A DNA stretch of 64,000 bases from Amoebophrya sp. A120 (lineage: Eukaryota > Protista > Dinoflagellata), in contig CAJINV010000003.1 of NCBI GenBank assembly GCA_905178155.1, positions 9,245,979-9,309,978 on the forward strand, in the 5' to 3' direction. Positions 5,601-30,020 of this stretch are shown here, piece by piece. The stretch's first letter is position 1. Every line of letters begins with the position of its first letter. The position numbers and the translations under genes are program-made. The notes below the pieces were generated by a model, which did no database searches, had not been told where the DNA came from, and worked only from the letters and a program-made list of their open reading frames with translations.

Positions 5601-6450
5601 TGCAAAACTTGGCGAGGATTTGCCGCCTCGCCGCCTCTGATTCTGGCGATCACGAATATTCGAGAATATTCGAAAAGCTGGCAAAACCTTCGACAACTTT
5701 CAAACTCCTGCCTTCCCATTTTGAAGCGATTCCGAATATTCGAAAGCATCCGCCAAAAATTTCCAGAAGAGGACGTAATTTATTTGGACTATGCCAGTCT
5801 CCCCAGATAGAGGCGGGGGTCGCATTTTTGGCATTCCCAAGCGTTGCAAAACTTGGCGAGGATTTGCCGCCTCGCCGCCTCTGATTCTGGCGATCACGAA
5901 TATTCGAGAATATTCGAAAAGCTGGCAAAACCTTCGACAACTTTCAAACTCCTGCCTTCCCATTTTGAAGCGATTCCGAATATTCGAAAGCATCCGCCAA
6001 AAATTTCCAGAAGAGGACGTAATTTATTTGGACTATGCCAGTCTCCCCAGATAGAGGCGGGGGTCGCATTTTTGGCATTCCCAAGCGTTGCAAAACTTGG
6101 CGAGGATTTGCCGCCTCGCCGCCTCTGATTCTGGCGATCACGAATATTCGAGAATATTCGAAAAGCTGGCAAAACCTTCGACAACTTTCAAACTCCTGCC
6201 TTCCCATTTTGAAGCGATTCCGAATATTCGAAAGCATCCGCCAAAAATTTCCAGAAGCGGACGCAATTTATTTGGACTATGCCAGTCTCCCCAGATAGAG
6301 GCGGGGGTCGCATTTTTGGCATTCCCAAGCGTTTTGGGATAAAGCTTGGCGAGGATTTGCCGCCGCGCCGCCTCTGATTCCGGCGATCACGAATATTCGA
6401 GAATATTCGAAAAGCTGGCAAAACCTTCGACAGCTTTCAAACTCCTGCGC
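2612..6450. repeat. Tandem array of 244-bp units (~16 copies, last partial)
   Basis: GGACTATGCCAGTCTCCCCAGATAGAGG recurs at 2853, 3102, then every 244 bp to 6274; edge units diverged, central units identical. Confidence 0.97.
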
Positions 6451-6559
6451 GCCTTCCTATTTCGAACCGATTCGCAGCATTCGAATGCATGCGCGGACGA
6501 ACTCGGCCAAAACTTACAGAAGAAAACAGCAAACCCGCCAAAATTTACGCCGAGCCATA

Positions 6560-7553
6560 AACTCGCCAAGCGGCGCGGAGCGAAAGCAACAAACCCGCCA
6601 AAATTTACAAAACTAATTGCGGCCGCCGTGCCGTGCGGATTCGCGAAGCCGGCAGCTTCGCCAGAAAGCCCGCCCGCGCGATATGGTGCGAACGATGAAA
6701 ATTCGCGAAAAACCGCAAAACCGACTGCGGGCGCCGCGCCGTGCGGATTGGCGGCGCCGGCAGCGAACCTCTTACGAAGCCCAGCCCGCACGGTATGGCG
6801 CGAAAGCAAAAAAATCGCAACAAGTTACGTACAAAACTAATCGCTGCCGCCCTGCCATGCGGATTTGCGAAGCCGGCAGCTTCGCCAGAAAGCCAGCCCG
6901 CACGCTATGGCGCGAACATAAAAAATTTGCAAAAAGTCGCAAAGCCGATCGCGGGCGCCGCGCCGTGCGGATTGGCGAAGCCGGCAACCCCTTAGGAAGC
7001 CCAGCCCGCACGGTATGGCGCGAAAGAAAAAAACTCGCGAAAATTTAGAAAAACCAAATGCGGCCGCCGTGCCGTGCGGATTCGCGAAGCCGGCAGCTTC
7101 GCCAGCAAGCCAGCCCGCACGCTATGGCGCGAACATAGAAAATCTGGAAAAAGCCGCAAAACCGACTGCGGGCGCCGTGCCGTGCGGATTGGCGAAGCCG
7201 GCAACCCCCTACGAAGCCCAGCCCGCACGGTATGGCGCGAATGGGCGAAATTCGTCACAAAAATAAAAAACGCAGGCGATCACCGTCCCGCCCTGATTCG
7301 CGCGGATTGCTGATCTGTCCTGAAGCTGATCCGCATGGTATGGCGGCAATTTGTTCTTGTTGTTTTGTTTTGCTTTTATTGTTGACAATAACAGTCCCAC
7401 CTGGATTCGCGCGGATTGCTGATCTGCTCTGAAGCTAATCCGCATGGTATGGCGGCAATTTTTTTTGTTGTTTTGTTTTGCTTTTATTGTTGACAATAAC
7501 AATTATTATTTAATTATTTTTTTTCTGACCTGCCGGCTTTTTTCTTTGGGATA
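6560..7553 (-). repeat. Right long TIR (inverted copy of the left arm)
   Basis: 7075-7553 is a near-exact reverse complement of 1509-~1990; the inner 108-bp units are more diverged. Confidence 0.9.
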
Positions 7554-8668: not shown

Positions 8669-9746
8669 TCAACCAGCATCTACGCTGTTCCCGTTCCTGA
8701 CCCGGCCCTGTACAATATTTAGATACGGACTCACCTGTCCGAGCATTTCCCAATCGCGCGGACTGTGGGGGCTAGCCGGCACGGAGTCGCCCTGCGGGAA
8801 AAGCGGCGGCGTCCGTTGCAAAGCATCAGTGGGCCGGCCAACATCCAACACAGGTTGCAGCGGCTGGCTTGACGGATTCCCCGCGCCCGTCTGTGCGTGT
8901 GCCGCTCCTGCTCCTTGACGTGGCGGCTTCTGGCCCTCTGGACAAGAAGAGCACTGTGTCGCATCTTCCGATCCGAGTTGTGACTTGGGCTGACGGCACT
9001 CCTGCTCGTCCGACGTAAAAATACTAAGCGTAGTACTGGGCAGGGCGGCGCTGCCGTTCGCCGTCTCCTCCCTCGTCTCTCTCCCGCCTTGCCGCTCCAC
9101 TACAGGCAGGAAGACGCGCGTAGAAGATACGGCACGATCATCACCTTTGCGCGTTGCTGCAGCTGCTCCACTCCCTTTACCAAAATCCGTGACGCGCGGC
9201 GACGACATCAAAGAAGCCCCGGCTTGCTGAACCTGCTCCCATTCTTGCAGGCTTGACTTACAGCTTCGACGCCCAGACGTTTCGGACGCCTGGAATACCT
9301 CGCCAAGAAGAGCTTCGAAAACTTCAAAACGCAAGGCGTGGGCAAGAAGCAAATCCTGAGCCGTAGGCGAGAAGCATCAAATCGCAGCGGAAATACCATG
9401 GGAAGTAAGGCCTCTCAGGGCTTTTAGGCAGTAGCGCTTCACACGCCCAGTGCCGAGGCCGCAATTGGCGCACCAAAGTACGCCAGAGCTCAGTAGTCGC
9501 AGCACAAATCGAGCAACGAAACAGGCAAGGCATTGCCGCCGGGAGAGCGAGCACATACAAGCGCGCCCGCCCGTGCCGGTATGTGCTGCTTTCCCTGCAG
9601 CTGTCGGCACGCTCTTTTCTCGGCAGCGGCAAACAAGATCTTCTCGCGGCCGTAGGCGCCCAGGCCTCCTCGCGAGCCGAGAGGCTGTTGCCGTTCTTTT
9701 TGGCGTCTCTAAACAAACTTTTTGGTGAAATCTTGTTCTTTAGCAA
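8669..9746 (-). CDS. Low-complexity coding exons, possibly the C-terminal extension of the synaptojanin-like gene
   Basis: ORFs 8669-9352 and 9324-9746 are Ser/Ala/Pro-rich like neighbouring exons; exon joins unresolved. Confidence 0.35.
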
Positions 9747-9767
9747 GATAGCATAGCGTTGTTCTTT

Positions 9768-12700
9768 TTATGCATAATATGCATTAGCATAAGCGAGCGA
9801 CGCGACTTGACTAAATGAGAGGTCTTCTGTAGACTGTTTGAGGTATTCCACGGCCCCATGAACGCCCGGCATCGGAGGAGTACCTGACAGCTCTCCATTA
9901 TCCAGAAAAAAAAGTGTGTAAGTGTAACTTTCTTTGAGGAACAGCATCACAAATTTGCTTTGTCATGCGTGGCTTGTAAGGCAAAACACACCTGAAAAGA
10001 GAGCTTCGTGGCTGTCTGGCATGACAGGTGTAACTCTGTTGCATGTTCTGCAACACAAATTTACACTTACACAGTTTTTTTCTTGCATATCCATGCTCTT
10101 CCCGGTCATGGAATTCGAGTAGTACTCCTTCGAGGTATATCAACTGCAAATATGTCTGGGTCTGGAAGGATGCGAACTTGTGATGCGTGTTGCGGATCAT
10201 GCAAAAATTTGTGTTGCATGACTTGCAAAAGGTCCCCATTTCTAGCCATTTTTTCATTTCATTTCATTCAGAAGGGCGCTTCTCATGCATCGCATCGCAT
10301 CGTATCGCATCGTAGTGACCTTTGACTCCTGTCAGGGTGGCGTTGGAACAGCTTTAGCCCCTGCCAATACCTGGGCGTTAGAACAGATTTCGCCTCTGCC
10401 AATACCCCTCACCATCATCATCATTGAGACGGACCCCCTGTGGTCGTCCTCACGGCGTCGTCTTGGCCCTAGGCTGTTTCGGACAGATGTTGGTTGTGTC
10501 CGGCGTGAGGACGGCTCTGCATGGGCCTCATGCAGAGAAGGCATTTCTCATGCAGAATAGGCTTCACCAAGGGGCTGCAGGACCTGTGAGGACGCTAGGC
10601 CCTGCATTCCAGACCTGGCAGAGCTTGGAAAAACGGCATGACAAATCTCGGAATTTTCCAGACCCAGACATATTTGCATTTCATAAGGTAGTCGAGGACC
10701 ACGGGGCGGTGATCGCTTCCCGTGCAATTGAAATACGCGGTGTACCCCAAAAAGGCCTTCTCCGCGTGGCGACTGCTCAAGTAGGCGCCGCTGGACGCCA
10801 CCTCGTGCCTGGCCAAAGCTGCGGCGTGCGAGTCGTGCTGGCCTGTCAGATGATGACTGTGTCCGCCTCCACCGCCGGGAACTACTGACGTCCTGGAGCT
10901 GCTGGAGGTCGCCGCACAACTTTCAACATCGCTAGAATCCGTTTCGCCCGAAGTGGATGTTGACTGCGGCTGGTCATTGCAGCCTACATTCGCCCCCAAG
11001 GATTGCGCCCTTTTTAACGGAAGCACTTTGATGTCATCTCCTGTCGCGAATCTCGTGGCTACGGAGGGTGAAAGGGCTTCCGCAGATTGAGACGGCACCA
11101 GAGACGAAAAGGATGACAGGGGCAATGCCCCTGTGCCTTGTTGATTCAGCGGACGTCTTCGCAAAACAACGTCTGCCCCATCCTCGTGCAAATGCCGGTG
11201 CGCCGGAACTTTCAGACCGCGCCCGGCAAACAAAATCCGATCACACCAGGCCGGTTGGCGCGACACATCGTAGTGGTACTCTTCTCTGTGAAGCCGGTAA
11301 GTCGGAGGAAACGCGATCGGCATCTCGCGAAGCGCAAGATAGTTCTTGTTCATTCGTGTGGCTACATCTACTCCTGGCGTTTTTCCCAGCTCGCCGGTGT
11401 GCTCTTGCAGACTCAACATGGATGCTGCAGAGATAAGGAAGTCCATATTCAAAGCACGCAACTATAAAAGGTAAAACTCGTCACGTTACTAGATGAAACA
11501 TAGAATAGTCAGGGTACGCAAATTACTCGCGGAAACGACGAGAGTTGTATCAAGGTACGAGGTAGATTTACGCTTACCTTTCTCGTTGAGGTACTGATCA
11601 AACCTGCACAGGTCCCGCCAATGCTTGTAAACGTGGTCGGAATGCCGCGCGGTCGCGCGAAATGGGTCCAACTCTGCGTCGGTGAAGGCAGTGGGGTCAT
11701 AAACATCACTGAGCTGCTCGAACTTAACGCCACCTGCGCTCCCGGTTGATGGGCCCGCAACCGCACTCGAACCACTTCCACGACCCGCGGGCCCAACGAC
11801 CCCAGCCTTCGGAGCTGGCGAAGCACCGCAACCGCTGCTACTTGTGTCAATCCGCGTTTTTAGGAGACGAAAGTTAAAGTCACCAGCACAGATCACAATG
11901 TCATAATTGAAGCGGCTCTTGTCGCTATTCCAGATCCGTCCAGACTGGAGGATGTTTGTCAGTTGCGCGTACCGCCGCGAGGCGTTTGTAATACCGCTCT
12001 CCAGGTGGACGTTGGCGAAGCACAGAGTCGTATCCAAAAGCTGGTATTACAATGAAAAATGCCCCCTCCCCATATCAAAACGGAAATCTGTGATGCAGAT
12101 TTGTGGTCACAAATCAGGTTTGTGATGCTAGAAGGCAAAAGATGCGGACTGTAGTGCTGTCTAGCGTGGGAAAGCCTTGCAGCTCCAGGATGACAGTAGG
12201 CAACTGGAAGTGGGAAACAGCATGACAGATTACCTGCAATTTAGGCCGCAGCTTCGTCTCTTGGCCTTCTATTTGTGTACTCAAATACAGCATCACAAAT
12301 TCGCGCATCTTCCGTTTCCGATATGGGGTGGGGGCTTTTTTCACTTTGATAGCTGGAAGTTCAGCACCACCGCGCCCTTGTTTCCAGCCATGCCGCCCAT
12401 GCCCTCCGGAATATCGCAGCTGCCAATGCGGGAAATCATAGGAGCGAGGTGGTCTGCCACAAACACAACCGAATACTGTCCGATCATCCCGCAACCCTTC
12501 ACTTTCGAGTAGCTCACGTGAGAAAATAGCTTCTCCGACGTAGTGCTGGTCCCACCTCTGAGATTGAGACTCGCACCAGCAGGCTGCTTCGTGGGTGGGT
12601 TGGGAAGATGAACCCCGCTCCTACTAGCCTCCGCAGTCGACTCAGGGCGACCGCTCGCTCGTGGCGGAAGGCTCAGGTCGTAAGAACGAGGTTCGCCAAG

Positions 12701-15700
12701 ACCGTTCCGCCCCTCGACTCCGAGATCGGGATTTGTGGCAGCGGCAGGCGGATCCTTGGCCGGATCAAAACGCGGACAGAAGGGACGCCGGGGGCTCGCG
12801 ACATGGCCGCAGCCGTATTTTTGCTTCAAGGCTGCGTCAATTTTCGCATTGATCTCTTGTATGGAAGCGTCAGGATTGAAATCGACAAAGTTGTAATGCA
12901 TGAAATCGATACCAGTTGGAAGCTCAGTTTCCAAGCGGTGCATGACAAATTTCGGCACCGTCTAAATCTAGTCTGTCATGCTGTTTAGGGACAGGAGGCG
13001 TCTTTTATCGTGCTACTTTAGCAGCTCTATCTCAGACCCCAAACAGGCTGACAGTCAGCCTCACTTGCCATCCCTGCAAGAGAGGCACTTCATGCCTTGC
13101 AATTTATGCATGAGAAATTATTTCAACTGTGACGATTTCAATCCTGACAGTTCCATATCTTGTTCGATCGTCGTATCCCAGGAACCCCCGACCAGGGATG
13201 TGGCGGTGGCGACGTATCAAATGTAAAAATGTCTGGGTCTGGAAGAGTCATGCTGTTTTTGCATGACACAGAAGGTCTGGCATGGAAGCTCTAGCATTAC
13301 AGGTTTCGAGAAGCTTCCGCAATGTCGAATCCGCATGACAAATCCCCCACTTTGGTGACAGAAAGTGGGCAGCTTCTGCTACCCATGCATGAGAGATTTT
13401 TCTGTGTTCTGAAATGTGCATTACAAGTTCGGATTCTTCCAGACCCAGACACTTTTACATATGATACGACGCCCAGATCCACAACTTCTTGGAAGTTAAA
13501 CACCATGATGTCTCGCGGAACTTCCGGGAGAACGCGCGTCAATTCTTGCAGAGGATCCGTCGTACCGCCCACATTCCACGTGCAGGTGAAAAGCGTGAAA
13601 TTGCCGACGTGTAGCTTCTTACGGTGCTCTCGTGATACCAAAAGTAGCGTCAGAGCGGTGCCAGTGAGCTGACGGCAGCTTTCTTGTCTGGGTGTGGCGG
13701 GCCGCCGCGCCGGCGAAACAACAAGACCAGTGGCCTCGCAGTGCCGTGCGTTGTGCCACTGCTGGGCATCATAGACTGCGCTCTTTTTTTTTTAAGTAAT
13801 TAAAGGTGTGTAGCGGCCGCTCAAACTCGTGCCGGAAAGTCGCAAGCTTCTTGCAATCAAAAAACCAAGGCCGGTCCGCTCGCTGTGCCCGGCCCCCGGA
13901 CCTTCACCAGGGCCGAGCCTTTTGACGCCCGGCCCCGGAGAATCGACATCGGCGGGCGCCACAGTACACGGGCGGGCTTTCAGTTTTTCGCCTTTGCGGA
14001 CATTTTCATACGTTTTCATGTTTTTCGCTCCCGCTTTTTACAATCTATCACAAGCGCCACCGCTCCTTTTCCTTTCCTATCTTTCCAACTTGTTTCCGGA
14101 CAATAACTGGCCGACTCACGATTCGGGTGGCCGCATTTCCGGCCCTCAAATGTGAGCACAAGTGATGCCCTCACCATCCAACGACCTCACTTTTTCCTTA
14201 CTTTCCGCTGTTGCTTTTTTGGCGTCTCCGTTTTCGCGTGCAAAAACTAAATCGCGAGAATCCGCACGTCGCAGCGGCGCTACTTTCGCCCGCTCCCCAC
14301 CTGCGTCGTTCTTTAAACTGACGGCACTGGACAGAATCCAGGTGGGCTTATTTGACGCAAAAAACCAAGTGAGCCGATCAGACTCAGAGTTAGAAAGTGA
14401 CAACAATATTTTTGCATGTGTCAAAAATAAAAGCCTCCGGATCGCTCCAAAATTGCCGGTAGGGTTTCTACTTGCTGCATGTCAAGAAAGCCGCCAGGTT
14501 AGAACACTCGCGAGGACCTCACTCCATACAATATTCTGAAAGCGTTCGGAAAGCGGTGGGCTACGCAGCAAAGCGTCGAGACACTCTTGTCGTGTCGCAT
14601 CTTCCACTAACGCGTTGTATTTGCGCGCGACGGACCTCCAGGCGAATTCGTAGTGCGAGTGCTTGCCCTCCCGCAGGAACGTAGAATAGATGGAGGCCAC
14701 GCCAGTTGTCTGCTCGCTAACTTGATCGCCAGCATCCGCCCACAGGACTTGCAAACCCCCTCGAACGCGCTGCTCGTCGCCGGGCACTAGCAGGCCAGTC
14801 CCGATGCCTACCGTAGCCTCCGCCGAGCTCCTCATCGCGTCGTGCGAATGCCGCTGCGGGTCCCTGAAACTTGCCTCCCCACCTGCTCCATTGTATCCTT
14901 CGCCCGTTCCGCCACTTTCTTTTTCCGCTGCGTGCGACGAGGTAGAAAAGTAGTCAAAAAAACTCTGCCCCCACCCCGGCGCGTCGGCTTCCGGCATCTG
15001 TTTTTCCAGTTGCTGTGACGTCGACTTGGAAGTAGGCAGGGTGGGCACGGGACCACCAAAAAGACGTGTGGGAACCGCGGCACCGACGGCGGCTCTGGAG
15101 GCGGAGGCGCTCTGCTCCGCGCCGTTCGGACATGAACCGTCGTCGTTCTTGACTTGTTTTGGCTCTATTCCTGCGATGAAATCGTGAATGCTTTGCCTCG
15201 TATTTGCTTTTCCAACGCTCCGGGAAGGAGCCGCGGCAGAGCACTTAGGGGATCGTGGGGTTTGCGACGACGAGGCATGATGTGGCTGAGCCACAATCTC
15301 GATCGGCCCGACGCTCGTTAGTGCATCCGGACGCGAGAGCGCATGGCCGCCCTTTATTTTATTTGTGGGGGATGCAGCACTACTCGGCGACTTTCCTGCT
15401 GCGCGGCGCTTTTCCTCGGCAAGAAAAACCTGCTGCACGAACCACCAACAAAAACCAAACTGCATCAGGTTTGTGCGATCCAGGCAATCCATGCAATTCG
15501 TGCGCACGACGCCCGACTGCCGAGTCCTCCACACGCACGGATGTGGTTGTACTGGACTTTCTCCAGCACTTCCGCACGCGTCGCCCGGCTCGTGCGCTTC
15601 ATGATCGGAGGTCCGTCCATGCACTACGTCCTGTGCGCCGCGGCGTCCTGATTCGCCAGCACTTCTATCAAACGTCGTCTGGTGTGTCAGCACCGCCACT

Positions 15701-18700
15701 TGGTGCTCGGGCAAACCGTCACAGCTCGCGAACCCGTACTCTTCGAGTTCCGGCCGCCACTTGTCCATATCAAGTGCAAAAGTGTCTGGGTCTGGAAGAT
15801 TCCGAGATTTGTCATGCATATTTCTCATGACCCATGATGCCTGTGGTGCATGATCTAGCATCACAGACTTTTAGAGGGCTTCCTGATGCAACTTCCGCAT
15901 GAGAAATGCCCTGTCCGTGTAGCACAAACTGTACCCCTCTTGCTGGTCACGCAATACAAATTTTTTTGGAGTCCAAAGTTAGCATCACAAATTCCAACCT
16001 TCCAGACCCAGACATTTTTACATTTGATAGTCCACCTCTGCAAACAATTCCTCCACACTCGTAAGTCCCTTGTGGTTGCAGGATCGTGTGTAGAACTGCT
16101 TCCGCCCCATACTCAAAAAAAACATGATGCCTATGGTGCGTGTTCTGCTTTACACGTCAGAAACTCGTCCGGGGATCTGCATAGCACAAGTTTGTGCTCT
16201 ACTGACTAGGCATACGTATGCAGAAATTGCATGACAAGCACAACAAGTAAGGGGTGGCGGGGAAGTTTTCAAACAGCGTACGAAGTCGAAGTGCTTCAGC
16301 AGAAGGCAGCGACGCGCCCCAGCGGCTGCCCCTGATATTGCACCGTAGTCATCGGGCCCATTCGCGCGCGCGCTGCTCGAGGGGGACCCGCCCGAGGACG
16401 GAGACGAGCTCCCGAGCTGCTCCATCCGGAGCGGCGCCACGCCGCCCGTTTTTCCGGTGCAGTGCGTGGTGGTCTTGTCGTGTCCTCGCGTGGTCGCGGA
16501 AACGCCGTCCACCGCGTGCAGCCGCAATTCGGCGGCGCGCCCGCTATCCTGAGCCGCCGTCGTTCGTGGTGGCGTCACCGTGACGTCGCTGCCCCTTGGT
16601 GGAACACCACGGTCTGTGCCTGCGGGTCCCTGGGCGTCGGAGTGAACAGCTACTGAGACCGCGTCGGATGTACGGAGGAGCTCCGCATCTTTGGGAGCGG
16701 TTGTTGTAGAAGAGGGTGTGGTCGTGCCAACGGCTGTGTTGAGACTGTCTTCTCCTCCTGGCACGACCCCAGAAATGTTGCTGCACGCAGGTGAAGGGAC
16801 CACCGCACCAGCAGAGCTGCTGACGGAAACTGATGCAGCGACAGCCCCACAGTTGTTCTTGAGGCCCTTAGTACTCAACCGCGGCAGCTTCGAAGCCACG
16901 GCACGGCTATCGCGATGCCGAACTTCGCGTAGGTACTCCTGCACTTGCTCCTGCAAGGAGTCGACTAGCATTTGCTCTCCTGCTTTTTTGTCCTATTACA
17001 ATGAAAAATGCCCCCACCCCCGAACTTGGAAGCATTTGTATTGCAAACCTTTCCAAATGAAACATTCGCCCTCTTGCATCTATCAGCATTACAGGTTTCC
17101 AGTCGTGAATAGCGAAAATTTGTATTGCAAAAGACCCCAGCAAGAGCGGCGCTTGTCATGCAGGCAGCGCGATACACGCCTAGACTCTGCATCAGAAAGA
17201 TAAGACTCGTACTCCTTTCATGCATGACAAAAAGTTTTCATTTGGAAACTTCGCATCACAAATTCTTGCAATTTTAGGGGTGGGGGCATTTTTCACTGTA
17301 ATATGTCCGACAGCAAGTTCACGTACATCACGCAACCATACATCCTCTCCAGGCCTTCCTGGTGCTTTCGGAATCCCTCCTTTGCAAACTGCGGATGCGC
17401 GCCATCAAGAGGAAGAATCCCCGCTTCCAGTGGTTCAACATCCACGTGCTTTGCTTTCTTTCTATCGATATCGTGTGCACACGACCCAGCACCATTGTCC
17501 TCACATGTGTACATACATTCCTTCGGAGATACCGGGCGAAGGCCCTCTATTGTTCGGCGCCCCAAAACGAGCACCAGCAGGGAGGTGATAGTACCTCTAT
17601 TTGTCTAGGTGCTAGCTATGGACGCGCTCGACGCCTCTTCTGGTGCCGTAGACCAAACAGCAGTATTCAAGATGGAGCACCGGCGGTAGGATGCGATAGA
17701 AAGCTCTCGATCATTATTTGAAGAGCGCCTTCTGGTCTTCGCAATTTGCGTATACAACTAAACGCATGAGAATCACAGATCTCCTTTGGAACATGGAGAG
17801 CGGGATAAATTTTTCCTGATGATACTCACGGGTCAGCTCCGGAATTCCCATTGCATTTTGCTCCCAGAACAGCGGCACCGATCCCCGTATTTGTATAAAG
17901 CTGTATTGCGTGAACAATGTCGCTGCACCAGCCGTCGTGGCCGAGGGCGTTGTACTAGCAGCAATCGACAAAGATGCAGCGGTCCTGGTGAGCTGTGCGA
18001 GCTGTTCCAATTCGCAGAAGTTAGCAACGTCCCCCGCGTCGTCCATGCCTCGACATGCATACCGAGTGCCAACCCGGCGACAAGAGCGTCGCACGATCAA
18101 CAAGAGCCGGACTGAGGCGGACGAAGGGACTGGACGGCCGGAGCATCCGCTAGCGGGGTCGCTGGCGCTACCCGACGTCGCCATTTCGCAGCCTCTATGG
18201 CCGTTCGTAGCCTTGACATTTTTTTCCTCCCGTGCTGTTGACCCAGTACAATCTGTTGCAGCGCTAGTCGCCTTTCCGCAGGACGCAGGAAAGAAAGTGG
18301 TCGGCTCTCTCACCAGCCCACTAGTAGGAGACTGCAATCCCTGAGGCAACGTAACGTCTTGGTTCGTCCCCAAATTCGGTTGGCTGGGACGGTTGCCTTT
18401 GGCGTACACTCTGTGCGTGCCGGCGTCTTGAGGCACGACGTTGCCTGAGTTTTCTCCCTTTGCGACTGCTCGTCCAGTTCGCGAGGACATACGCTCGGCT
18501 CGCTCGTGGGTGGCACGGTTGTAATCCGCCGGCGACAGAAAAGACACATCATCTATCGCACGCTCCCCGACAAATCCCTGCATAAGCACAGAGAGCCACG
18601 CCTGCGTTCGTGTGTCCTGATGAAGAAAAATCCGTGCCATCTCGTGGTTCCAGACAAACCGTACGTCCGCTGTTTCGAAAAGAAAGTGCTGTGTGTTCTC

Positions 18701-19684
18701 GTAGGAAGCTGACAGTCGCCCACTAGCGGCACGGGGGATTCCGCCTGGGCCTACCGAAATCGGTTTTGCAGGAGGTTCCTGCTGCCGCGCTGCCGGTCCT
18801 ACTACACATGGGCCTCGTTGGTTAGCGGCATCCGCAGTTCCAGTTCCCGTCCCCGACTGCATTTTGACTTCAGTGTTAGCCGCCGAAAGAGAGGAGCTCA
18901 CCGATACGGGCGCGCCGCACCCATCTCGGAGGTGCGAGCGAGTCGAACTAGGCGTACTACGGAGCGCACCCGGCGCAGTCGTTGCGGACGAGTTGTTGTA
19001 CATGGCCAACTTGCGCTGCAGTGTGCGAGTGAGGTCGATCTCGTTGCTGAAGTAGAACCCGGAAGATTGCAGGAGGCGCTCCAGACCCTGGATTTTTTGT
19101 GCGTGTACAGTACTCGTACTATTTTGCGCACTGTTAATGGGCAGTAACTCCACCTGGGCGACCCGGAATATTTTTCCGTACGAAGGGCTCCGGTTGCAGC
19201 CGCCGGCATGGTCGGGTGCGGCCCAGTGGTCACTCGTTGCAGAAGAGCCGGGAAAGAAACTGAACGGGCGCGACGAGGGCCGATCGTCGACGTGCTCGCG
19301 CTGCTTCTTGCTGGTCGTGCCGGCGCCCGAGAAAAAGGGGTACGCGCCCTCAGGGTACAGGTCCAACACTTCAGTGGCCTTGCTGCAGTACAGGAGGTAA
19401 TGCATGCGCTTTTCGAGCGACAGGATTCCAAACAACGCCAAACAGCTCCTCGGAGGGTGTTTTGTCGTGTTACGCTGAAGCCCGAGGGGGGTCTCGTGCA
19501 GCAACGGCATGGAATGCAAATAGTACTCCGATCGGGATGTGAAAAGATGTAGACTCCTTGAAATTCTTGTGCTCGGCGGGCAGTCGCAGCCTGAGCTCTG
19601 CAAAAATGCCCGGCGCAGAAGCACGCCCCTTTTTTGCTCGTCATGGTCGTCTTTCAAACTCACTATGCTTTCTTGGTTGAGCAC
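9768..19684 (-). CDS. Synaptojanin-like phosphoinositide phosphatase (SAC1 domain + inositol polyphosphate 5-phosphatase), multi-exon
   Basis: SAC motifs RRSCRRVGTRY, ANFCELEQ, QIRGSVPLFWEQ, VNLLSDKKAGEQ (after splicing) and catalytic RTNCMDCLDRTN (CX5RT). 5-phosphatase motifs TWNVGG, FQEVVDL, GNKGAV, FANVHL, GDFNFRL, FPPTY, PAWCDRILF, GSDHRPV, in the expected order. Ends approximate. Confidence 0.9.
9899..10089. mobile_element. TIR introner (family D), non-canonical intron
   Basis: TIR TATCCAGAAAAAAAAGTGTGTAAGTGTAA vs TATGCAAGAAAAAAACTGTGTAAGTGTAA; TSD TCCAT (9894-9898, 10090-10094); removal reads EEHG-ELSG. Confidence 0.88.
10138..10685. mobile_element. TIR introner (family A, TGTCTGGGTCTGGAA), non-canonical intron
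   Basis: TIR TATnAAnTGCAAATATGTCTGGGTCTGGAA; TSD AGGTA (10133-10137, 10686-10690); removal reads SDHRPVVLDYL-EGVLLEF. Confidence 0.92.
11425..11577 (-). other. Probable canonical GT-AG intron
   Basis: G|GTAAGC donor and TCTGCAG| acceptor join ORFs 11489-12037 and 10595-11461 in frame (NEK-ASMLSLQ). Confidence 0.6.
12045..12351. mobile_element. TIR introner (family C, GAAAAAnGCCCCCnCCCC), non-canonical intron
   Basis: ~40-bp TIR; TSD GCTGG (12040-12044, 12352-12356); removal reads GNKGAVVLNFQL-LDTTLCFANVHL. Confidence 0.92.
12860..13157. mobile_element. TIR introner (family B, TATGGAAnnGTCAGGATTGAAATCG), non-canonical intron
   Basis: TSD TCTTG (12855-12859, 13158-13162); removal reads TTIEQE-INAKIDAAL. 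Confidence 0.92.
13215..13466. mobile_element. TIR introner (family A), non-canonical intron
   Basis: TIR TATCAnATGTAAAAnTGTCTGGGTCTGGAAGA; TSD CGACG (13210-13214, 13467-13471); removal reads QEVVDLGV-ATATSLVGG. Confidence 0.92.
15768..16029. mobile_element. TIR introner (family A), non-canonical intron
   Basis: TSD GTCCA (15763-15767, 16030-16034); removal reads EELFAEVD-KWRPELEEYGF. Confidence 0.92.
16994..17303. mobile_element. TIR introner (family C), non-canonical intron
   Basis: TIR TATTACARTGAAAAATGCCCCCACCCC; TSD TGTCC (16989-16993, 17304-17308); removal reads VNLLSD-KKAGEQML. Confidence 0.92.
17403..17824. mobile_element. Decayed TIR introner
   Basis: Imperfect IR (CATCAAGAGGAAGAATCCCCGCT vs TATCATCAGGAAAAATTTATCCCGCT); flanks CGCGC/CTCAC match 3/5; removal +5 nt reads ELTR-(A/E)HPQFAKEGFRKH. 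Confidence 0.6.
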
Positions 19685-22600
19685 AAACTAACGCAACGTT
19701 TGCCGGCACGCAAGCATACTTGTTGCCTCTGATGCATTGAAACAAACCTGCTCGAGCTATTTGCACTCGATACCCTCCATTCTACAGCTACGGCGGCAGA
19801 TCTGCAGAAACGCGCTCTTCGGTTCGTCCTCTGCTCCATCACGGAGGGCGCGCTCCCGGCGTTCGACGAACAAGTGGGCGCATCATATGCAAAACGTACC
19901 ATGAACCTGTGCGTCCCGGCCGCTATGAATTTCGGCACTAGAGGTCTTTTGTTCACCGAGGTTCGCGCGGTCATACATATTCATGCGCAGTGGCAGTGGG
20001 CGGTCAATGTTACTTCATTATGAAAGCTATTTCGAGGATAGCGGCCACGCTTCGCGAGCACATGATCCCCTCCCTACAAGGGCTGCGTAGGAAGAGGCAA
20101 CAAACCTAAAAAACGGGATAGCACGACCCCGTTGTTTACATTCCGCAGATATTGAACATTTTTGAGTAGTTTCAGGTATGACTTTCCTGCGTGTGTAGAA
20201 GAGCTTGGCTAAAATCAAAAAAACTGCCAAAATCCATACAAGATCAAAATGGTGACTAGTACGTGTACGCTCCTTCTTGTGCTTGTGATAGCCCGTCTGT
20301 GACATGAATGTGTAGCGACTGTTCGGTTGCGCCACGCATCCACTCGAAACGAAGGAGAATTGATGTCCTAAGACACCGCTTTACGCATCCGCTCCGTCCC
20401 TGCAGACTCCGCCTCGGTTAGGCATCCATTCGTTCCCTCACCGTCCTAGTTCTCGTCGAGGTAAAAAAGCAATAACATGCGCTGGCCACGCTGCCACCAT
20501 CATGTACGGGATGAAGCCAACCCCTTCACACAGCATCAGACCGGGTGCTGCAAGTCAGCGTCTTCGTCTCAGAGCAAACGTCGCCCAGAATGAAGATGTG
20601 GCGCGCAGAAGACCTCAGGTCGGTCGCGCGCGGCTGCTGTCTGCGCAGACTTACGGCAGAAGTGCTGCTCTCTCTTTCCAAGCTTTGCCCTTCTTCATGC
20701 CAAGCTCTCGCTGATGATGTCCAGCTGTGACTTTGCGTGGCAGTATTTGGCGTGGCTACGCGCTGCCAACATGGTGTTGAGTCGCGGCAGCGGCAGGCTG
20801 TACTCGAGACATAAACAAGCAGGGGCTGTGGACATGGGGACTCTGCCCCGAGAGTTTTGCCGCACGTCGTGTCACTGCCATGATTTGCCTGATGAGTTCC
20901 GCTTTCTTGCACTCTAAGAGCAATCAATCGCTCACGGTCACGCTGCAAACAAATTCAGTGGATTAACAGACTATGAGAGCCACTGCAGGCTTCTCATCCG
21001 ACTTCTATACTTGGCCAGTTGCGGACACATAGTTAGCGCAGCGTCCTCAGGAACGTCTTAGGACAGTAACCATAGCATAGCTTATCATGGGAATTGGCTG
21101 GCTGGCGCTTCTGCCTTCTGGTGAAGATCGCAATCTTCGAAGTAGAGCTGGCATTACTAAATACACGTGAGCAGAGAAAACTCACCCGAAAGTGTCGGAC
21201 TACGGTCTCTGCCTCTCCGGAGCAGGAGATTTTGGCATCCTGGAAAACGGAAACGCACAGCGCATGTGGTCATGGTTGCAGCGCCACAAACCTTCCTCGG
21301 TGTATAGCTCGATCAGCCTGGTGCTGGCTTATTCTTCTGCATTTTCTCAATTCCAGTTAATACGGTTTACATTTTCATTTATGTTTATCGGTCATAACTT
21401 TTGAAAGTGACAGACACTTCAAACGACGAAGCAGAAAACATATCGCGCGAGTCTGATGCGGAGGTAGCTCGTGATGGTGATAGCTCAGAGGTGAGGTCAA
21501 AAGCCCTCGTACAGATTCATCATGAGGTCAAAAATCATCTGAATTTGTTGTCTACAAGTACTATGGAACGAGCTCGCTGGTTCTTGCTCGTGCAGAAGTG
21601 GTACTAACGGACCGCGCCTTTCCAGGTGCTGTCGTCTGACAACAACAGACGGAAAGAAAATGAATGCACGCAGCAGCAGCACACGAAGGCTCAGACCAGC
21701 ACTTCTAACCGATCGCGAAGTATCTAGGAAGCGGCGACTGCAAGTCGTGCGTATCTTCATCTTGACGAGAATTGCATAGCGCGCTCTTCCGTTCTTTTTA
21801 ATGCAAAAATCGAAAGACAGGATCAGGAAAAGGAAAACAAGCGTAGAAATACCAGCCACGGCCCCGCCAACTACGCGATGAATCCACAAAGTGAAAGTAG
21901 AATCTAACGCAACGCCTACCAGAAGACCGATAGTATTTCATTGGGTTTTATTTGGCCGATTATCTTCTAACACTAATGCAAGTCAGGCCGCGTTGCCCTA
22001 CGGAACTTTCCTTCTCGCTCAGACCGTCTCCATCTCGGTGAATATAACATGGTAGTGAAGAAGATATAGCAAGTACTACGGCAAAAAAATGCTTTACGGA
22101 CCGAACGAAAGAATCCGCACAAGAGCTGACGCTGTGGTGGATTCTTTGCTCGTCACTGCGGGGTTGCAGTTATTTCCCAACAATTACAGTTGCTTATTTT
22201 GGATTTTTTGGGAGGAGTAAATATCTAAAAAAGTTATCAGTGTGTCTGCTGGCTTTCAACCACAGGAAAGTCCATCGCATGTGTGCGCATGCAAGGAAAG
22301 TCTCGCGCTTGTTCGCTTTATATCCATTCATGTGCTTCACTTCTAGAAGGTGAAGCCATGTGCTTTATGTAAAAATATCAAAGAGAAGTAAAGTAAGTAA
22401 AAATATACAATAAACAAAAGTCGTTTCAACAATATTCAACAAATCTTGCTCAAGCTTGTAGTTTAGAATCTGTATCTATATTCTCGATGTCATTGGTGCA
22501 TTCGGTTGGGAAGTGGCGGATCCTGCTCGTGCTGGTCTTCACAATCCATGATGCTGCATGATGCTGGAAAAGACGCCCCGTCTCGTAGCCTGCACATTGA

Positions 22601-23059
22601 GAGAGTGCGTGGCACTTTGATCCAACAAGAACGAATCTCTACGCGGAGTCTCTCAGTGTCAGTAGTGGTGCTCAGGCCCCCGCATTATACTGTTGTGCAC
22701 AATATCAAACGCAAGTGGTGCTCCTGCAGCATGACGCTTCAAGACTAGTCCTGGCGATGCCCAACGTCGAGCCTTTCGACGAGCCTACTGATTCAACTCA
22801 ATTAGTAGTCTTGTCATCAGAACAGATGAAAGACACTCCCGACAAAGGCAAAAGTAGAAGGCTTGCCAGAGAAAGTGGACGCGGCCAGTAGCAGACTCGC
22901 TGTGCCACAGATGCAGCGCAACATATTACTGGACTTCTACTTCTTTATCCCACACCGACACCACCCGCACTGATTATAGTATTATTACAAAGTGAGACTA
23001 TTTTTCCGCGGCGCTGGTTACAAGAGCTGGAAAGACGGGCGAGCGTGCACGTCGTTTGT

Positions 23060-25130
23060 TCAGGATATGGACATCTCTGGACTACTCTGGTTCGCAGCGA
23101 GGGGGAGGGCGCTCCCGTTCGCCGCGAGGGGGAGGGTGCTCCTGAGAGCGGCAGCGATCTCCTTGTGACGGCGGTCGTCGGTCCGGTGCATCGTCTGATT
23201 CGTAGAAGGATCCTCTTGTAACGGCAGGCCCTCGGGAAGCCCCTCGTCGCCAGACGCCGAGGTCGTAATGTTTGCTGTGCTGTTGGCAGGCGAGTGCTGC
23301 CGAGCAGTAGAGGACCCGGGGTGGCTATTCCTCAAAGTCGTCCCCCGACTCGACGGAGCCCGAGTACCCACGGCACCCGCTTGCTGTTGTTCTACTATCT
23401 TCCTAGCGCAGTCGTAGCCTGAGGGACTCAGCGGCCCTCGCTCGGTCTGAGCAGGATCTTTACCGCTAAGGAGCAAGTACCTCATCCAAACCTATGCAGA
23501 TAAAGCGTACCCCGGCCTCAACATACGCAATGCACTATCATGAATGTTCTTTCCATTGCAGCAAAGCTCCCAGTGCGCGCTGATCATCACGTACTGAATT
23601 TATTTCCGGAGATCGTCGCAATGCCGTCGCGCATTTTGTTCGAATAGCAGGGGCCGGCACGAACAAGATCACGATACTTATAGCAAGGCATGCCGCATGC
23701 GACGACTTGCAACGATCATACAGTTCTCATGTGAAACTGAAGCCTCCGTGCCTTGGTAAACGGATTGCAACCCTAAAGGCAACCCATAACAAGGGTTTTG
23801 CGTTGCATTGACAGAATGCGACGTGTTTTGCTGCAGAACGTCGGCCCGCAAGGCGGAACCAATACTGCAAACCACATCTCGTCTACCATATCTATTTGTA
23901 AGAACACATTCGAAACATCTTCAAGTGTCATACATGCAAGAAGGAAAAAGGAAATGCTTCCGTTGAGGAAAACCGCAAGGCCCTGGGAAGTGCTTTGTAG
24001 GGGCGGGAAGGGGCACGCTTTTTCGTATGATAAGAACTGCTCGTGATTGAGCAACCGATAATCAAGCGTCTTCAGCGCCCACCGTTGCACCTCCATCAGA
24101 TGCTTCTTAGGGTACACGGGGTACATGTCCTTCTTTTCCTTGTACTGGGACGGAATCCACCCTGCAAGTCGTTTTTGTTTTTCTTTATAATTTTGGCCAG
24201 GCCGACATCGAAGCAGTCCTCCAAGCAGCAGGCCAGCGCATCTCAAATCAAGAATTTAGTGGTATAGGTATTGAGAAAACAAAGGGACGACAAATAAAAA
24301 GACAAAAGGGAAAAACTATACGGAAGACGTAGTCGAACCACCACTTGAAATGACCCGGCTCGTCGAAGATGACAAGCGTGGCTATGCGAAGCAAGATCGT
24401 GAAGATCTTTCCGTTTGTATCACGTTCAAAATTGCCCCCACCACACTGCTACCCCTAAAGACAGCCCTCATGTCTGCTACTTCCGTGAAACTACACGCAG
24501 TGACTTAAAAATTGCTACCAGATACTGATTACTTAATCATCGAGGACAGGAGGCTTGCTTTGGTGAGTAGTTGAAGGAGACCTTTTTGCACAAGATAGAT
24601 TTCCGCATCATCCGCTGCAAATTTGCCCTTATTCTCTCGCATCCAAGCGTCGTAGTTGTTGTACGAGGCAGGCCTCGGCATTACGGGCTGGCCGCTTGCT
24701 ATCGCAACAAAAAACTGTTTCTCTGTAAACTTGTAATGCAGAAAATGTATCTGAGAAGTATTTGTCTTGCTACACATGCAAGACAATGGATTTTTAGCTG
24801 TGTTTTCTCTTAGGAATCTCGCATGGCAAATTTTCTCTATGATGTAGAACAAACTTGTGATGCAAAACTTGCAAAATCCTTACAGTGAAACACTTTTTTC
24901 GTGCGATACTTGCGTTCTTCTTGCGATTGAGTGGCGGCTTGGACCCCGTCGGGTTGTGATCTTGGTCGTACCGCCTATATTCATCCTCCCATCCGTAAAT
25001 GGCTGCTCGCTGGTCCATCACCCAGAGCTCCTCATCAACCGGAATTTTCTCTTCTGGGTCGATAGTATGTGGTGGCGTGGGTGTGTCCTTAGGCGCTTCG
25101 TCTATCCTACAGAAAAGCAGAGCTACTAGT
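23060..25130 (-). CDS. Hypothetical protein, multi-exon
   Basis: ORFs 24794-25021 and 24529-24852 join in frame across the 24700-24908 element; further exon-like ORFs at 23773-24246 and 23060-23485. No family recognised; ends approximate. Confidence 0.5.
24700..24908. mobile_element. TIR introner (family D-like), non-canonical intron
   Basis: TIR TATCGCAACAAAAAACTGTTTCTCTGTAA vs TATCGCACGAAAAAAGTGTTTCACTGTAA; TSD CTTGC (24695-24699, 24909-24913); removal reads RKKNAS-GQPVMP. Confidence 0.9.
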
Positions 25131-27612
25131 ACAATAAACTTTATCTTTTTGTCTCAGCGTTTACCCGTAGTATTGTACCCTGTGGTACTCATCACATTGA
25201 GATTGAGTAGATACAAGTATCCAAAAGGACACACATATAGGTACTTTGAATAGCGCGCTCGCATTCCTTCGTAGCTTCTCTGGTCAGATACTTGAACTTA
25301 TACAATAATATTGACGTGCCTGCTCTGAGTCTGACAACTCTGTCTTGTACACTTGCATGGGACACTTCGCCAAGTAAGTGTTCGCGATTTTATACAACTT
25401 GGGCTAGGCGGAGAGAAAAGCCGTGACTATGCAAGCGCTTTTCTGTATGATATTTTCCTGCAGCTTCACAAAGTACCACGACCCAAGGGCTAAGACGGCT
25501 GTGAAGAATGATGACAGTTTTCGTTTGTGTGGTGCAAGGCAGCAGCATCGCTTGCCCGCCCGTGCAAGGACTAGCACAGCGGCTTTCTTCCTCTAGCTGA
25601 GGTAAAGACCGCCAAGCAAAGCTTTCGAGCGGAAAAATCAGTAGCAAAAGACGGAGCCATCGGTCGTGGCCACTCAAATGAAATCAAAATCATCTCATTC
25701 AGATACAATTACAAATCCATTTCTATTTGTTGCGGGGGCAAATTAACAAAAAACAAAAGTATCATAGAAAAGTTTTTCATCGGGTGAGGAAAGATTTTGC
25801 AAGACACTAAAGCTGTATTATACCAGAAACATGCTCGCTTGCGTGCATTCGGAATTCTTTCATCAGCTGGACGGTATTGCGGACACTCTGCCATATGGGA
25901 AGACTGAGGCGAACGTTTATCAAGACAACCATGCGCCGGACCATCTTCACCAGAACCCTATTCACTGCAAATGTGTCATGGCCATATCAAGACAAAAGAA
26001 CTACATGGCGACAAGTAGCTCCCACACACACATCTTCCAGCCTCGTTGTCCTTAATTAAATTTCTAAGAACTTTGATATATTTATAAGTCGCTCTCGTCG
26101 GAGTATCCCAGTGTCAGTACACGATTTTCATTTTGATTTTGGGTGCTATAATGAAGTCGCAGCGCATTTGCTAAAAATACTCTACTAGACCCCGAGGTGG
26201 CAAGACAATATTTGGGAAGGACAGAGGATACATTTTCCATTTGTAAAAGCAGCTCGACCTATTTATTATGAATGCATATCACCTTCTTCATTGTCTAGGC
26301 GACCACAACACACTTGCCAGCGATAATCGAAATCGAGCTTCGGTTCGCGCCTGTCGATGAAGAAGCGGAAAAGCATACAATCTATAGAATAGGACATCAA
26401 ATGTGAAATGCTAGAGGTACGAGGATCCAGGTGGGGCCACGTATGCGCATCCTGGTTTTCGTTTTCATGTCTTCCCCGTACGATGTGCTGAAGTTGCATT
26501 TTAATAGTGAATCAAAAACTGAGTACTTATATACCAAAATGTGTGCTGCCTGGAATTTAAGTCGTCGCGCATGTACTTCACTGAAACTTCGTCGGAGTCG
26601 GTCCTTGCGCTCGGGACTCAAAATGAAAACATTCCCCATCAAAGGTGAGTCATACACAATGCAAAGTTCTTGCTCTACTTGCTTACAAGAAAATAGCTCG
26701 CCGTACGTGCGCTTTGTTTCGTTTATCCTTTTCCTGCGATGCTTAGTCTACAATTGATGCTGGCCAAGCAAATAGATCTAAGTACTATATGCTCTCCTGG
26801 GTGGGCAATGTTTGACTCTGCTTACGCTTGCAAATCGTTTCCTGCCCTCGTCTATAAAGACGCGGAACGTGTTTAGCGTCCGCCTATGGATTGCAAATAT
26901 GTCATGGCCATAGAACTTACCAGGGCACTTGCCTAGCGAAAGTAGTGCACTTCCAAGGCGTATTGCCCTACACAGAAGCTTAAACGAAGCTGTGTTCCTT
27001 TCGCATGACATGCAGTAATCACCAAAATCTATAAGACCAGGGCTCGGTATCTAGAGGTCCATGGTCTTGACATCTTTGCAGCGCGTACAGTCTGCTGTCC
27101 GGCTTCAACCAACCTTGCTGCTCGTCCGTCTGTCAATTCATAACATCGATCGTCGCTTCATCTCGCAGTTGTGTTCAAGTCGCAAGTCGACTCGAACTAA
27201 TACTAAACAAATCCAAACGCAAATAAGTAAAACAAGTAAAAAAGCTTCAATCAATACCAGGCAAGGACTGGAAGCTTGGGTCGATGCCCCGGACAAAGAC
27301 GGCGGAAAAGAATAGAGGGAAAGTCAGTGAGCTTAAGTGACACTACAGGAATTACTAGCCCCGAAAAATATAATCGAAGTTGCCATGAATTCCGTATCCT
27401 GATCTACTTCCTTGATATGTTTAAAGTGAATCTGCGCGTTTCATTCTTGTACGTAGTTGTCGCCTCGCCGCACAGAGAGGAAAGAACTCTATGAACTCTG
27501 ATGCAACATCAGACAGAGTGATGCAAACAAGAAGAACCAAGGCTCCTATGTATGGGCTGCCATGCGTTTACTTTTTCGGGGCTCAGCTTGCTGTGGAAAA
27601 TGAAAGTCACCT

Positions 27613-30020
27613 CTAGATTTCCCGTTCATAACACACACACGACTCGCTCTTGGGAAAAGGAATGCCGGCAAGTCCCAAACCGTGCGGGCCAAAATGCCGG
27701 GCGGCATAGGTTCTCTCCAACTGGTCTCGAGGGCTCGGGGTCGGCAACCCGTACGATGACCTTGAGCCCCTGCAATGAGGACCGACGAGATGGGGTGTTT
27801 GCAGCGATGGCGTCGACTGCGAGGCTGCAGTGGTGCTCGGGGTATCGGCGACGCTTTGGCTGCCTGAGCGGTGGCTGATAATATCCTGGTTATGAGGTGA
27901 CGGCGTGGCTCGGCTCAGCGACTCGCTTTCGGATGAGGCACCCCGCCCGCGCTTGATTCGTGGCGGCGTTCCTAACCCAAGTGCGGCGCTCGAAGACGAG
28001 TTGTCCCCATCCATGCCCGTGAGCTGAATCTCCCAACTTCCCGAAGAAGACCCTGTGCCAGAGCAGGTGCCGAACTGTAGACAACATCCCTCGTCACGTA
28101 GAGGCGCGCTTTCGTAGGTGTCGGGCGCGGGTCCCGCTGGTCCTTCGCAGGGTCCCATCTCCTCGGGCATGCGGTCGATGTACACTTTGTGGAAAGCCTC
28201 GCGCTCAGCCGGAGTGAGGTTCTGAAAACCCGGCACCTTCCACAGGGACTCCCAATTGTCCTGTGGTCGGCGTGGAGGTTGAGGATGAGGATGCGCGCCG
28301 GTATTACCGCCGCTAGAATGGTCGCAACTAGAAGTAGAGCACATCGGCCTCGGCGCGGACGCGGTCCCCATTTTTGTTGCTGGCGCCCGCTGCTGGACAG
28401 ACGCTGCGCATGCAGGCTCCACTGCGCCTGCTGTGGTTCGTGGCAACGAAGGATTGTTCCCAATGTTGTTGCCGGACCGCGGCGGAGGCATCGGATGCAG
28501 GGTCAAAGAATTCGCTGAGGGCACGCCCGGTTTCCGGTTGTTTGCTGCGGCGCCGGGCGGACCTTTTGTCCCGCTAGCACTCGTGCTGGTGCTGCCAGCA
28601 CCCCACGGTACAAACCCTCCTGTCTGCGCGGCGTCGAACGCGCCCTTGGACAAGGCGCCCTTGGACATCAACGCTTCTAGAAAAGTTTTCTGCCGCTTCG
28701 GGCGCGGTTGCGAGCCAGGCGACAGTATGGATTGCAAAAATGTCTGGGTCTGGAAAAATGCAGCAGTTTGTCATGCAGATTTGCATGGCCCATGAGGTCT
28801 GTGATGCATGCCACAGCGTCAGAGATTTTGCGAGGGTTTTCTGATGCTCATACCGCATGAGAAATGCCCTCTCCGCGTAGCACAAATTAGACCTCTTTTG
28901 CTGTTCATGCAATACAGATTTTATGTAGATTCCAGAAGTAGCATGACAAGTTGTATTCTTCCAGACCCAGACATATTTGCATTTGATAGACAGTGACAGA
29001 CTCCCGATGTCTGCCTCGATCCCCGCCATTTCTCGATCCACCTCATGGTCATCATAGCCGCCGGGGGGGCCTCCACCTCCACACGCTTCGCCGGTTCCCG
29101 CTGCCTCGTCGGAGGAAGATGGAAAGCCGATAAACTGATGGCTTACACGGTGGAGCTGGTGAGAAGACGACGGTGGTGCGCTGCCCGGCGTGCTAGCTTG
29201 TGAGGAAGCGGCGGCGTAGGGAAATAGAACGTTTCGCGATGTTTCCCCAGAAAGCCGAAACTGGTCTCCACCTCGATCTCTGTGGGTGGTTGCGTGAAAC
29301 CACCAAACCAAAACCCTGGAGCACCCCCGAAGCAGCACGGTCGATCCCCCTCTCCATACGGCGAGCCGCCGTTGCTGGCCACGCGCCCCGTTTTCGGCTC
29401 TCTTGTTCCGCCGATCAAAGAAAAAAACTGCGCTGTGCGACGAGTTCGTATACAAAACAACTAGATTGCAGGTGCACAGGCAGCGCAACCGTTTGCGGCA
29501 CTGCATTAGCTCCTGCCAAGGCGAACCAGAAACTGCCCACGACCTCCCTCAATTTCCTGAACCTAAATACCTGCCTGCACTGCGGTGCATTGTTGAGAGC
29601 CAGGCATCTCGAAAGACGCAACACCGCCAATGGGAGCAGTACAGGAACGCTCAACTTCAACAATCGGGGAGGTCCATGCATACTTAAAAGCATACAAATG
29701 TATACAAAAACGCTACCGCAGCTGGTACGTCGTCGTGTAAACAATAATCAGAGAGCTTTGCTGTTCTTATGGTCGCTTTCTTTCTCGCCTGAAAACAAGT
29801 ATAGTAGGTCAACATAGAAGAATACCTAGAAGTATTGCGCATCTTCTGCAAAGAAATGCCGAATCTCTTACCACAGCTTTTTTCTTGGATATCTCCACAT
29901 TCTCGCTCGCAACGGGCACTGACCGGTCGAGCAAGTGCGGCAAGTGGTTTTCCAAAGCCCTGACGACCTCAAGGAGAGTGCTGGAGCTAGGCAGACAGAT
30001 GCGCTGGCGCGGCTGCAATT
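27613..30020 (-). CDS. Hypothetical Ser/Gly/Pro-rich protein, multi-exon
   Basis: ORFs 28574-29506 and 27613-28737 join in frame across the 28726-28988 element (GSLSLS-PGSQPRPKRQ); upstream exons unresolved. Confidence 0.55.
28726..28988. mobile_element. TIR introner (family A), non-canonical intron
   Basis: TSD GACAG (28721-28725, 28989-28993); internal sequence clearly homologous to 15768-16029. Confidence 0.92.
29413..29891. mobile_element. Decayed TIR introner
   Basis: GATCAAAGAAAAAAACTGCG vs TATCCAAGAAAAAAGCTGTG (16/20); flanks CCGCC/TCTCC match 3/5. Confidence 0.55.

Follow-up and report, generated by a model that had tools for sequence, protein, structure and literature searches.

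Introners of family A in the dinoflagellate Amoebophrya sp. A120 are inserted in both orientations in genes of the same strand, and their splicing is exact in both orientations, with removal of the element and one copy of its target duplication. The window, a stretch of 64,000 nucleotides of contig CAJINV010000003.1, could be assigned to its host by exon 27631-28719, which matches a protein named Amoebophrya sp. A120 at 100% identity. Family A belongs to the introners published for this organism, bounded by TAT and ATA and flanked by 5-bp target duplications. The available text of Farhat et al. 2021 (PMC7789003) describes A120 introners with a TAT inverted repeat, seven variable nucleotides and then As, with direct repeats of 3-5 nt, and with a hairpin. 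Our elements likewise carry TAT, seven variable nucleotides and at least three As, have a direct repeat at the border, form a repeated family and are removed non-canonically. As elements they are already known; what we add, in a known system, is the absence of an orientation bias and the exact cut site.

Four family A copies lie in the window, three forward and one, A1, reversed (Table 1). Family A elements do not code for protein and measure about 260 nt. All start with TAT, end with ATA, have arms of about 30 nt and are flanked by a perfect 5-bp duplication (4/4). The motif GCATGAGAAATGCC is found exactly at 15897-15910 and 28855-28868 on the plus strand and at 10540-10553 on the minus strand; with up to two mismatches there are five matches, compared with 0.91 expected, and 0 of 100 shuffles reach five. 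A scan of the window with the repeat core retrieved the four elements plus one unpaired chance match. When reversed, A1 is colinear with the other copies over about 146 nt at one end and about 96 nt at the other, and its global alignment scores against the other three are 52, 52 and 37 reversed, versus -23.5, -9.5 and -27 forward. Because the reversed alignment covers both halves, A1 is not a short internal inversion. An inversion confined between the symmetric 30-nt arms is indistinguishable from, and equivalent to, inversion of the whole element. An earlier note on this DNA had claimed that family A sits in both orientations in same-strand genes. This is confirmed, with four copies rather than three; the motif positions and orientations it gave matched exactly, and its three intervals are the exact element ends. 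The two outcomes that it had named as fatal to the claim, a reversed segment that is only an internal inversion and an antisense copy that stays unspliced, are both contradicted by A1, which is reversed along both halves and skipped in spliced contigs.

Splicing was read from contigs of X1, X2 and X3, which we regard as spliced transcripts because the same contigs skip minus-strand GT-AG introns. At the reversed A1, the X1 joint 10132>10686 skips 553 nt, and at the forward A4 the X1 joint 28720>28989 skips 268 nt, in both cases the element plus one duplication. In X1, X2 and X3 alike, removal of A1 leaves 48 nt between the neighbouring pieces, as predicted. For A2, 52 nt lie between the pieces at 12854 and 13467 in X1-X3, the spacing expected from removal of both B1 and A2, and at A3 record 1 of X1 passes from 16030 (letter 259) to 15762 (letter 260). 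The X2 contig extends 49 letters beyond A3, and the X3 contig stops short of it. The support for A2 and A3, and that of X2 and X3 for A1, is read from record coordinates, explicit joints being among the 15 of 28 listed. The junctions of the reversed A1 and of the forward A2 and A3 occur together in one contig. Canonical U2-type ends (GT/GC...AG) are lacking: no minus-strand register of A1, A3 or A4 gives GT-AG, and A2 in the one-base-upstream register reads GT..TC. A reading of A1 as a plus-strand GT-AG intron was rejected; those ends arise by chance from the duplication AGGTA, and the long frame and the homolog are found on the minus strand only. Rfam covariance models gave 0 matches in the window at the gathering score, with no sign of a group I or group II intron, and the family A pattern was not found in viral contigs.

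Other sequence sources behaved differently. X5 retains ordinary introns and has the element ends joined to the exons; it behaves as DNA, and may be the source of the assembly. Matching raw reads in X7, X8 and X9 (105, 4 and 12) are nearly all partial and lie inside element copies. About 80 of the raw reads in X7, at 15979-16029, belong to another family A copy, whose end is joined to a foreign flank in both mate directions; they could stem from an unspliced copy at another locus, or from DNA.

The placement of all host exons on the minus strand, also proposed in the earlier note, holds by the joined frames, by the skipping of introns with CT..AC ends (GT-AG on the minus strand), and by the order of PF22669. 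Three of the four family A copies, including the reversed A1, share gene 1, whose exons, joined at the contig junctions, give 1,262 codons in a single open frame, on the minus strand only. Pieces of PF22669 occur in three of the five scanned exons, in profile order and on the minus strand, and the homolog P0002 (PF02383 + PF22669) aligns with gene 1 without gaps across the sites of A1, A2, A3, B1 and D. We take this domain pair to be synaptojanin-like. The joined exons of gene 2, with 13 joints in X1 record 4, give 916 codons, also on the minus strand only, and are an exact substring of the A120 protein P0001.

The cut position is fixed to within one base. In the six old TA-type introns of gene 2, the contig retains the upstream duplication copy (6/6), with a slide of 1 nt. 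The first intron base is that of TAT (TAC once) or the one before it, and the last lies 5 or 4 nt past ATA (ATT once). Ten small exons of gene 2 sum to the 800 letters between the listed pieces of the X1 record. Removal is directional, because the cut falls 0-1 nt before the 5' arm but 5-4 nt after the 3' arm. Codon scores, from copies without RNA verification, agree weakly, the upstream copy being better in 13/15 old and 17/27 young copies. A first scan for old elements was discarded (31 hits versus 16-28 at out-of-frame offsets, and an upstream-copy count biased by detection), and a masked rerun gave 18 candidates versus 8 and 4 in controls. Within the six old introns (23488-27630), the last duplication base is identical in 6/6 (P ~0.005) and the fourth differs in 6/6, from which the one-base slide follows. 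This identity was not reproduced in the sets without RNA verification, where 10/18 are identical and 5/30 single mismatches fall at that base.

Beyond the window, a pattern scan gave at least 177 loci; those listed are all on contigs with the prefix JACKZZ01, and none of them overlaps the window outside the elements. Among the matches listed there were 168 non-nested paired cores (four from the window), of which 146/168 end in TAT/ATA and 135/168 have a perfect duplication; 144 met the criteria for ends and duplication, and an orientation could be assigned to 120. Without any strand inference, 12/22 neighbouring pairs among the matches listed are opposite; of closely related pairs among them, 29/63 are opposite. 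The coding strand was called by a codon model. The two window genes served as its seed, which makes its check on the window partly circular; neighbouring calls agree in 125/126. By these calls, 45 copies among the matches listed are A1-like, 48 are A3-like, and 23/116 are uncalled. Exact removal restores the flanking coding on both sides in 37/45 and 38/48, compared with 3 to 8 in frame-shifted controls. The resulting 37 versus 38 in coding context among 140 further copies (95% interval for 37 of 75, 0.38-0.61), obtained with model-inferred strands and copies without RNA verification, suggests that the two orientations are also near-equal outside the window.

The extra middle of A1 (10234-10539) has no match among the loci listed (at least 177). 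It contains a 35-nt tandem pair as well as short runs that resemble microsatellites, and at 10275-10288 a further, degenerate copy of GCATGAGAAATGCC. Where the two duplication copies differ by one base in coding context, the difference is synonymous in 17/27 cases. This seems a larger share than a fully neutral copy would leave; both duplication copies could sometimes reach the mRNA.

As both orientations are spliced, no interior signal must face one way. Oriented by transcript, the base tables of the 5' arm and of the complemented 3' arm are nearly equal across 30 positions; in 114 copies, positions 1-3 hold T in 114, A in 114 and T in 111, and positions 11-13 hold A in 110-114. The terminal 30 nt are the same on both strands, and donor, branch and acceptor could therefore all lie there. 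Because both strands offer these same 30-nt ends, two-way splicing cannot separate recognition of structure from recognition of sequence. The earlier note had proposed that removal needs no strand-specific signals and that this is consistent with recognition based on structure. The exclusion of interior signals stands, whereas the preference for structure over sequence is unsupported and removal is directional.

Pairing of the arms was addressed more directly. The transcripts of A1 and A3 are predicted to fold a terminal stem (z -5.8 and -7.6), which is expected of any element with terminal inverted repeats. Selection at the RNA level predicts G.U above A.C on the transcribed strand. The G.U to A.C ratio gave a mixed picture. 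It was even in family A overall (86:86), stood at 84:58 in 125 elements of other families (P 0.036) and, in a post hoc look at 24 near-invariant positions, reached 34:16 (P 0.015); private changes gave 37:27, compared with 146:146 in interiors (P 0.27). The arms of the six old introns are paired at 72/120 positions while duplication positions 1-4 are identical in 10/24, and in five of the six arm complementarity is above that of shuffles. That old arms are still paired suggests that the element ends are under selection. The preference for arm variants by transcript end gave nothing below P 0.08 in family A; the A/T count at arm position 6 (7 vs 23, P 0.005) is one of many tests.

These data fit somewhat better than not with random-direction insertion by a transposase, followed by removal through a relaxed U2-type spliceosome that reads N-TAT, with a hairpin placing the 3' cut. 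A putative DNA transposase would insert the element in random direction with a 5-bp duplication; the relaxed spliceosome would treat N-TAT at the start as a GTAT-like donor; and the predicted terminal hairpin would set the 3' cut 4 nt past ATA. Orientation would be free because the 30 terminal nt read the same on either strand, and direction would come from the transcript. The elements resemble transposable elements of the miniature inverted-repeat type (MITEs), being short and non-coding, with terminal inverted repeats, target site duplications of fixed length, many copies and no strand preference. The one-base-upstream register (N-TAT) is favoured, since 5/8 GT-donor introns in the contigs start with GTAT; in this register, 96/205 sites are in phase 0. 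In Table S4 of PMC7789003, all nine predominant A120 non-canonical pairs start N-T, and the available text of that paper reports a near-complete A120 spliceosome, with U1 not detected. More tentatively, and with some doubt on our part, a single code might serve tens of thousands of non-canonical introns in A120, with a cut before N-TAT and another 4 nt after the partner ATA, the hairpin replacing the missing U1, and old copies drifting into GTAT-donor introns.

Several observations weigh against this mechanism or its register. X1-X3 are one sample whose RNA nature is guessed, and strand and efficiency cannot be read from contigs. Selection on RNA pairing is not supported in 115 family A copies, where G.U and A.C stand at 86:86, nor in the 18 old candidates (11:18), and o6 is spliced although its arms pair no better than shuffles (306/500). 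One old candidate would acquire a stop if the upstream copy were kept. AGG is in excess at duplication positions 3-5 (11 vs 4.7 expected, P 0.009), where it would yield GTAT...AG and points to the N-TAT register, but CCT shows a similar excess there (7 vs 2.1), and the signal fails correction for 64 comparisons. G is not enriched at the last duplication position (71 vs 64.7), branch-like TRAT shows no excess at the 3' ends (105 vs 105 of 240), and no fixed branch position emerged from 54 noisy predicted GT-AG introns. The boundaries in Table S4 may reflect aligner preference. Finally, an autonomous copy with a transposase was not found in 158 merged stretches around the loci, and the four long copies among the loci contain no frame above 137 aa.

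Closest to the idea of the earlier note is a separate, non-spliceosomal machinery, an endonuclease and ligase or similar, which would recognise the terminal stem and 3' overhang, as has been suggested for the nonconventional introns of Euglena. We consider this rather unlikely, even though it requires no AG, accommodates duplications without strong base preference, and would agree with the undetected U1 and with the weak G.U hints at near-invariant positions and in other families. The 3' geometry, a paired triplet followed by about 5 nt, also parallels the Euglena pattern N3CDG...CH'G N5-6, as given in the accessible part of PMC12501133. The Euglena 3-nt 5' spacer, in contrast, is not matched, the T at the second position and the GTAT donors tie the ends to spliceosomal donors, and the same genes contain GT-donor introns that do not end in AG, which shows that the ordinary machinery is already lax. 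The relaxed spliceosome is favoured over an Euglena-like machinery because N-TAT mimics the GTAT donors of this genome.

Recognition could also depend on sequence only, with TAT-N7-AAA and its complement read separately and the hairpin as a by-product of transposon anatomy. This explanation appears improbable to us, in spite of the equality of G.U and A.C overall, the splicing of o6 with little pairing, and arm positions 4, 5 and 7 being unpaired in about half or more of the 115 copies. It is challenged by the removal of all families with unrelated arms beyond position 13, and by the complementary arms retained above shuffles in 5/6 old introns, both of which are compatible with it still. An artefact, in which skipping would reflect a DNA allele or strain that lacks the insertion, or A1 would be a reversed copy in a plus-strand GT-AG gene, is barely credible. 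The guessed RNA nature of X1-X3 and the GT..AG that the A1 duplication yields on the plus strand would speak for it. The same contigs, on the other hand, lack ordinary introns, differ from the exons by 0 to 1 letters and combine the A1, A2 and A3 junctions; the DNA-like X5 keeps the element ends joined to the exons; and a long frame exists on the minus strand alone, as does the match to the homolog.

In the searched text of PMC7789003, "orientation" is used of genes only and the border is called variable or unknown, whereas here insertion is two-way and the cut is fixed within one base. No statement on introner orientation or a fixed register in Amoebophrya A120 was found in the searched text, which excludes figures (S19-S25 may hold part of it) and subscription papers. 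Among other introners, the searched text of the Polarella glacialis preprint (bioRxiv 10.1101/2020.10.14.339549) describes introner-like classes 1, 2, 3, 6, 7, 8, 10 and 12 with terminal inverted repeats and target site duplications, which act as introns in either orientation. In its class 12, the duplication is 5 nt long, and the last G of this duplication can form a donor together with the first element base, as favoured here. Polarella uses GT/GC/GA donors, with splice sites from the duplication or the element, and its classes 6, 8 and 10 show an orientation bias; A120 family A needs neither G nor AG and has no such bias. The introners of Aureococcus anophagefferens, according to papers citing the original work, are MITE-like and occur in either orientation, as here, but differ by canonical motifs and constant repeat lengths. 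A large introner survey, as far as its text was available, already allowed for copies in opposite orientation.

The nonconventional introns of Euglena, as described in the available part of PMC12501133, are similarly non-GT-AG, with terminal pairing, slidable direct repeats, and a 3' end lying about 5 nt beyond a triplet. They differ by CAG/CTG-type triplets, a 3-nt 5' spacer, a purine exon start and an unrelated lineage, and the need for pairing was experimentally shown there only. Our elements end in (N)TAT...ATA-N4/5 and do not follow N3-CDG...CH'G-N5-6, only the 3' spacing being similar. The Fritillaria borealis introns, as summarised in the parts seen of PMC11282704 and PMC7789003, are also transposon-derived and non-canonical, and a cited title credits an evolved U2 spliceosome. 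They differ by AG-AC/AG-AT ends with an exonic TAC, and by the lack of a TAT/ATA stem.

How the majority of non-canonical Amoebophrya introns is removed is a stated open question in the available text of PMC7789003. If insertion is two-way and unbiased, all signals that removal needs must sit in the mirror-symmetric ends. The fixed offset turns seemingly patternless splice dinucleotides into one rule, which can be checked on A120 RNA data and is useful for gene models. This also accounts for the ability of the elements to spread nearly free of cost. If the one-code reading were true, any element of the superfamily would be a perfect intron at any exonic site and in either direction. The orientation result alone is modest, as it is expected for elements with terminal inverted repeats and has been reported for other introners.

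Table 1. Introners, old introns and host genes located in the window
Feature	Position	Strand or orientation	Length	Remarks
A1 (family A)	10138..10685	reversed relative to A2-A4	548 nt	duplication at 10133-10137 and 10686-10690; ~285 extra internal nt
A2 (family A)	13215..13466	forward	252 nt	found by repeat-core scan; overlooked in the earlier note
A3 (family A)	15768..16029	forward	262 nt	element ends and duplication
A4 (family A)	28726..28988	forward	263 nt	in gene 2; element ends and duplication
Introner C1 (family C)	9899..10089	opposite to C2		microexon adjoins at ~9889-9893
Introner C2 (family C)	24700..24908			joint 24694>24909 in X1
Introner D	12045..12351			other family; TAT...ATA, 5-bp duplication; skipped in X1-X3 by record coordinates
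Introner B1	12860..13157	as B2 (33563-33914)		removed in X1-X3 by record coordinates
Introner E	16994..17303			related to D; predicted from element anatomy
Old TA-type intron o1	23488..24032	minus		decayed duplication, pins the cut
Old TA-type intron o2	24413..24597	minus		contig joint
Old TA-type intron o3	25098..25452	minus		contig joint
Old TA-type intron o4	25954..26325	minus		contig joint
Old TA-type intron o5	26880..27087	minus		starts TAC
Old TA-type intron o6	27306..27630	minus		3' arm ends in ATT; arm pairing at shuffle level
Host gene 1 (covered part)	8800..16288	minus		Sac/inositol 5-phosphatase-like; contains A1, A2, A3, B1, D, C1
Host gene 2 (covered part)	23068..29300	minus		A4, C2, six old TA-type introns, four GT-AG, one GT-CG

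In total, the window holds 10 young elements of the TAT...ATA build, from at least four families. Among TAT...ATA pairs with a perfect 5-bp duplication, 10/17 have arms matching at 12/20 or more, compared with a null mean of 0.05 in resampled sequence. Family C is present with one copy in each direction (global score 105.5 in opposite and 26 in the same orientation), and both copies are skipped in contigs, C1 by the joint 9257>10090, which in X1-X3 leaves 5 letters in between. At 9889-9893, in the region 9258-9893, a microexon of about 5 nt (5 to 11 possible) separates C1 from a GT donor, and three contigs carry one differing letter in the exon piece next to it.

Contig joints also reveal two GT-donor introns with non-AG ends, 26612-26825 (GT..CG, not slidable) and 13635-14525 (GT..TG, after a 4-nt slide). 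Both pairs are present in Table S4 of PMC7789003. A relationship of intron 13635-14525 to family B was dropped, as the likeness of the ends is weak.

At 1509-7553 lies a much longer element of 6,045 nt, again TAT...ATA, with the perfect 5-bp duplication CAGCC. Inverted arms of about 970 nt, made of 108-nt repeats, surround 15.7 copies of a 244-nt unit. Its removal joins no coding sequence, and no transposase-like frame stood out in it. Near the end of the window, at 62974-63046, two near-perfect palindromes of 37 and 35 nt adjoin each other.

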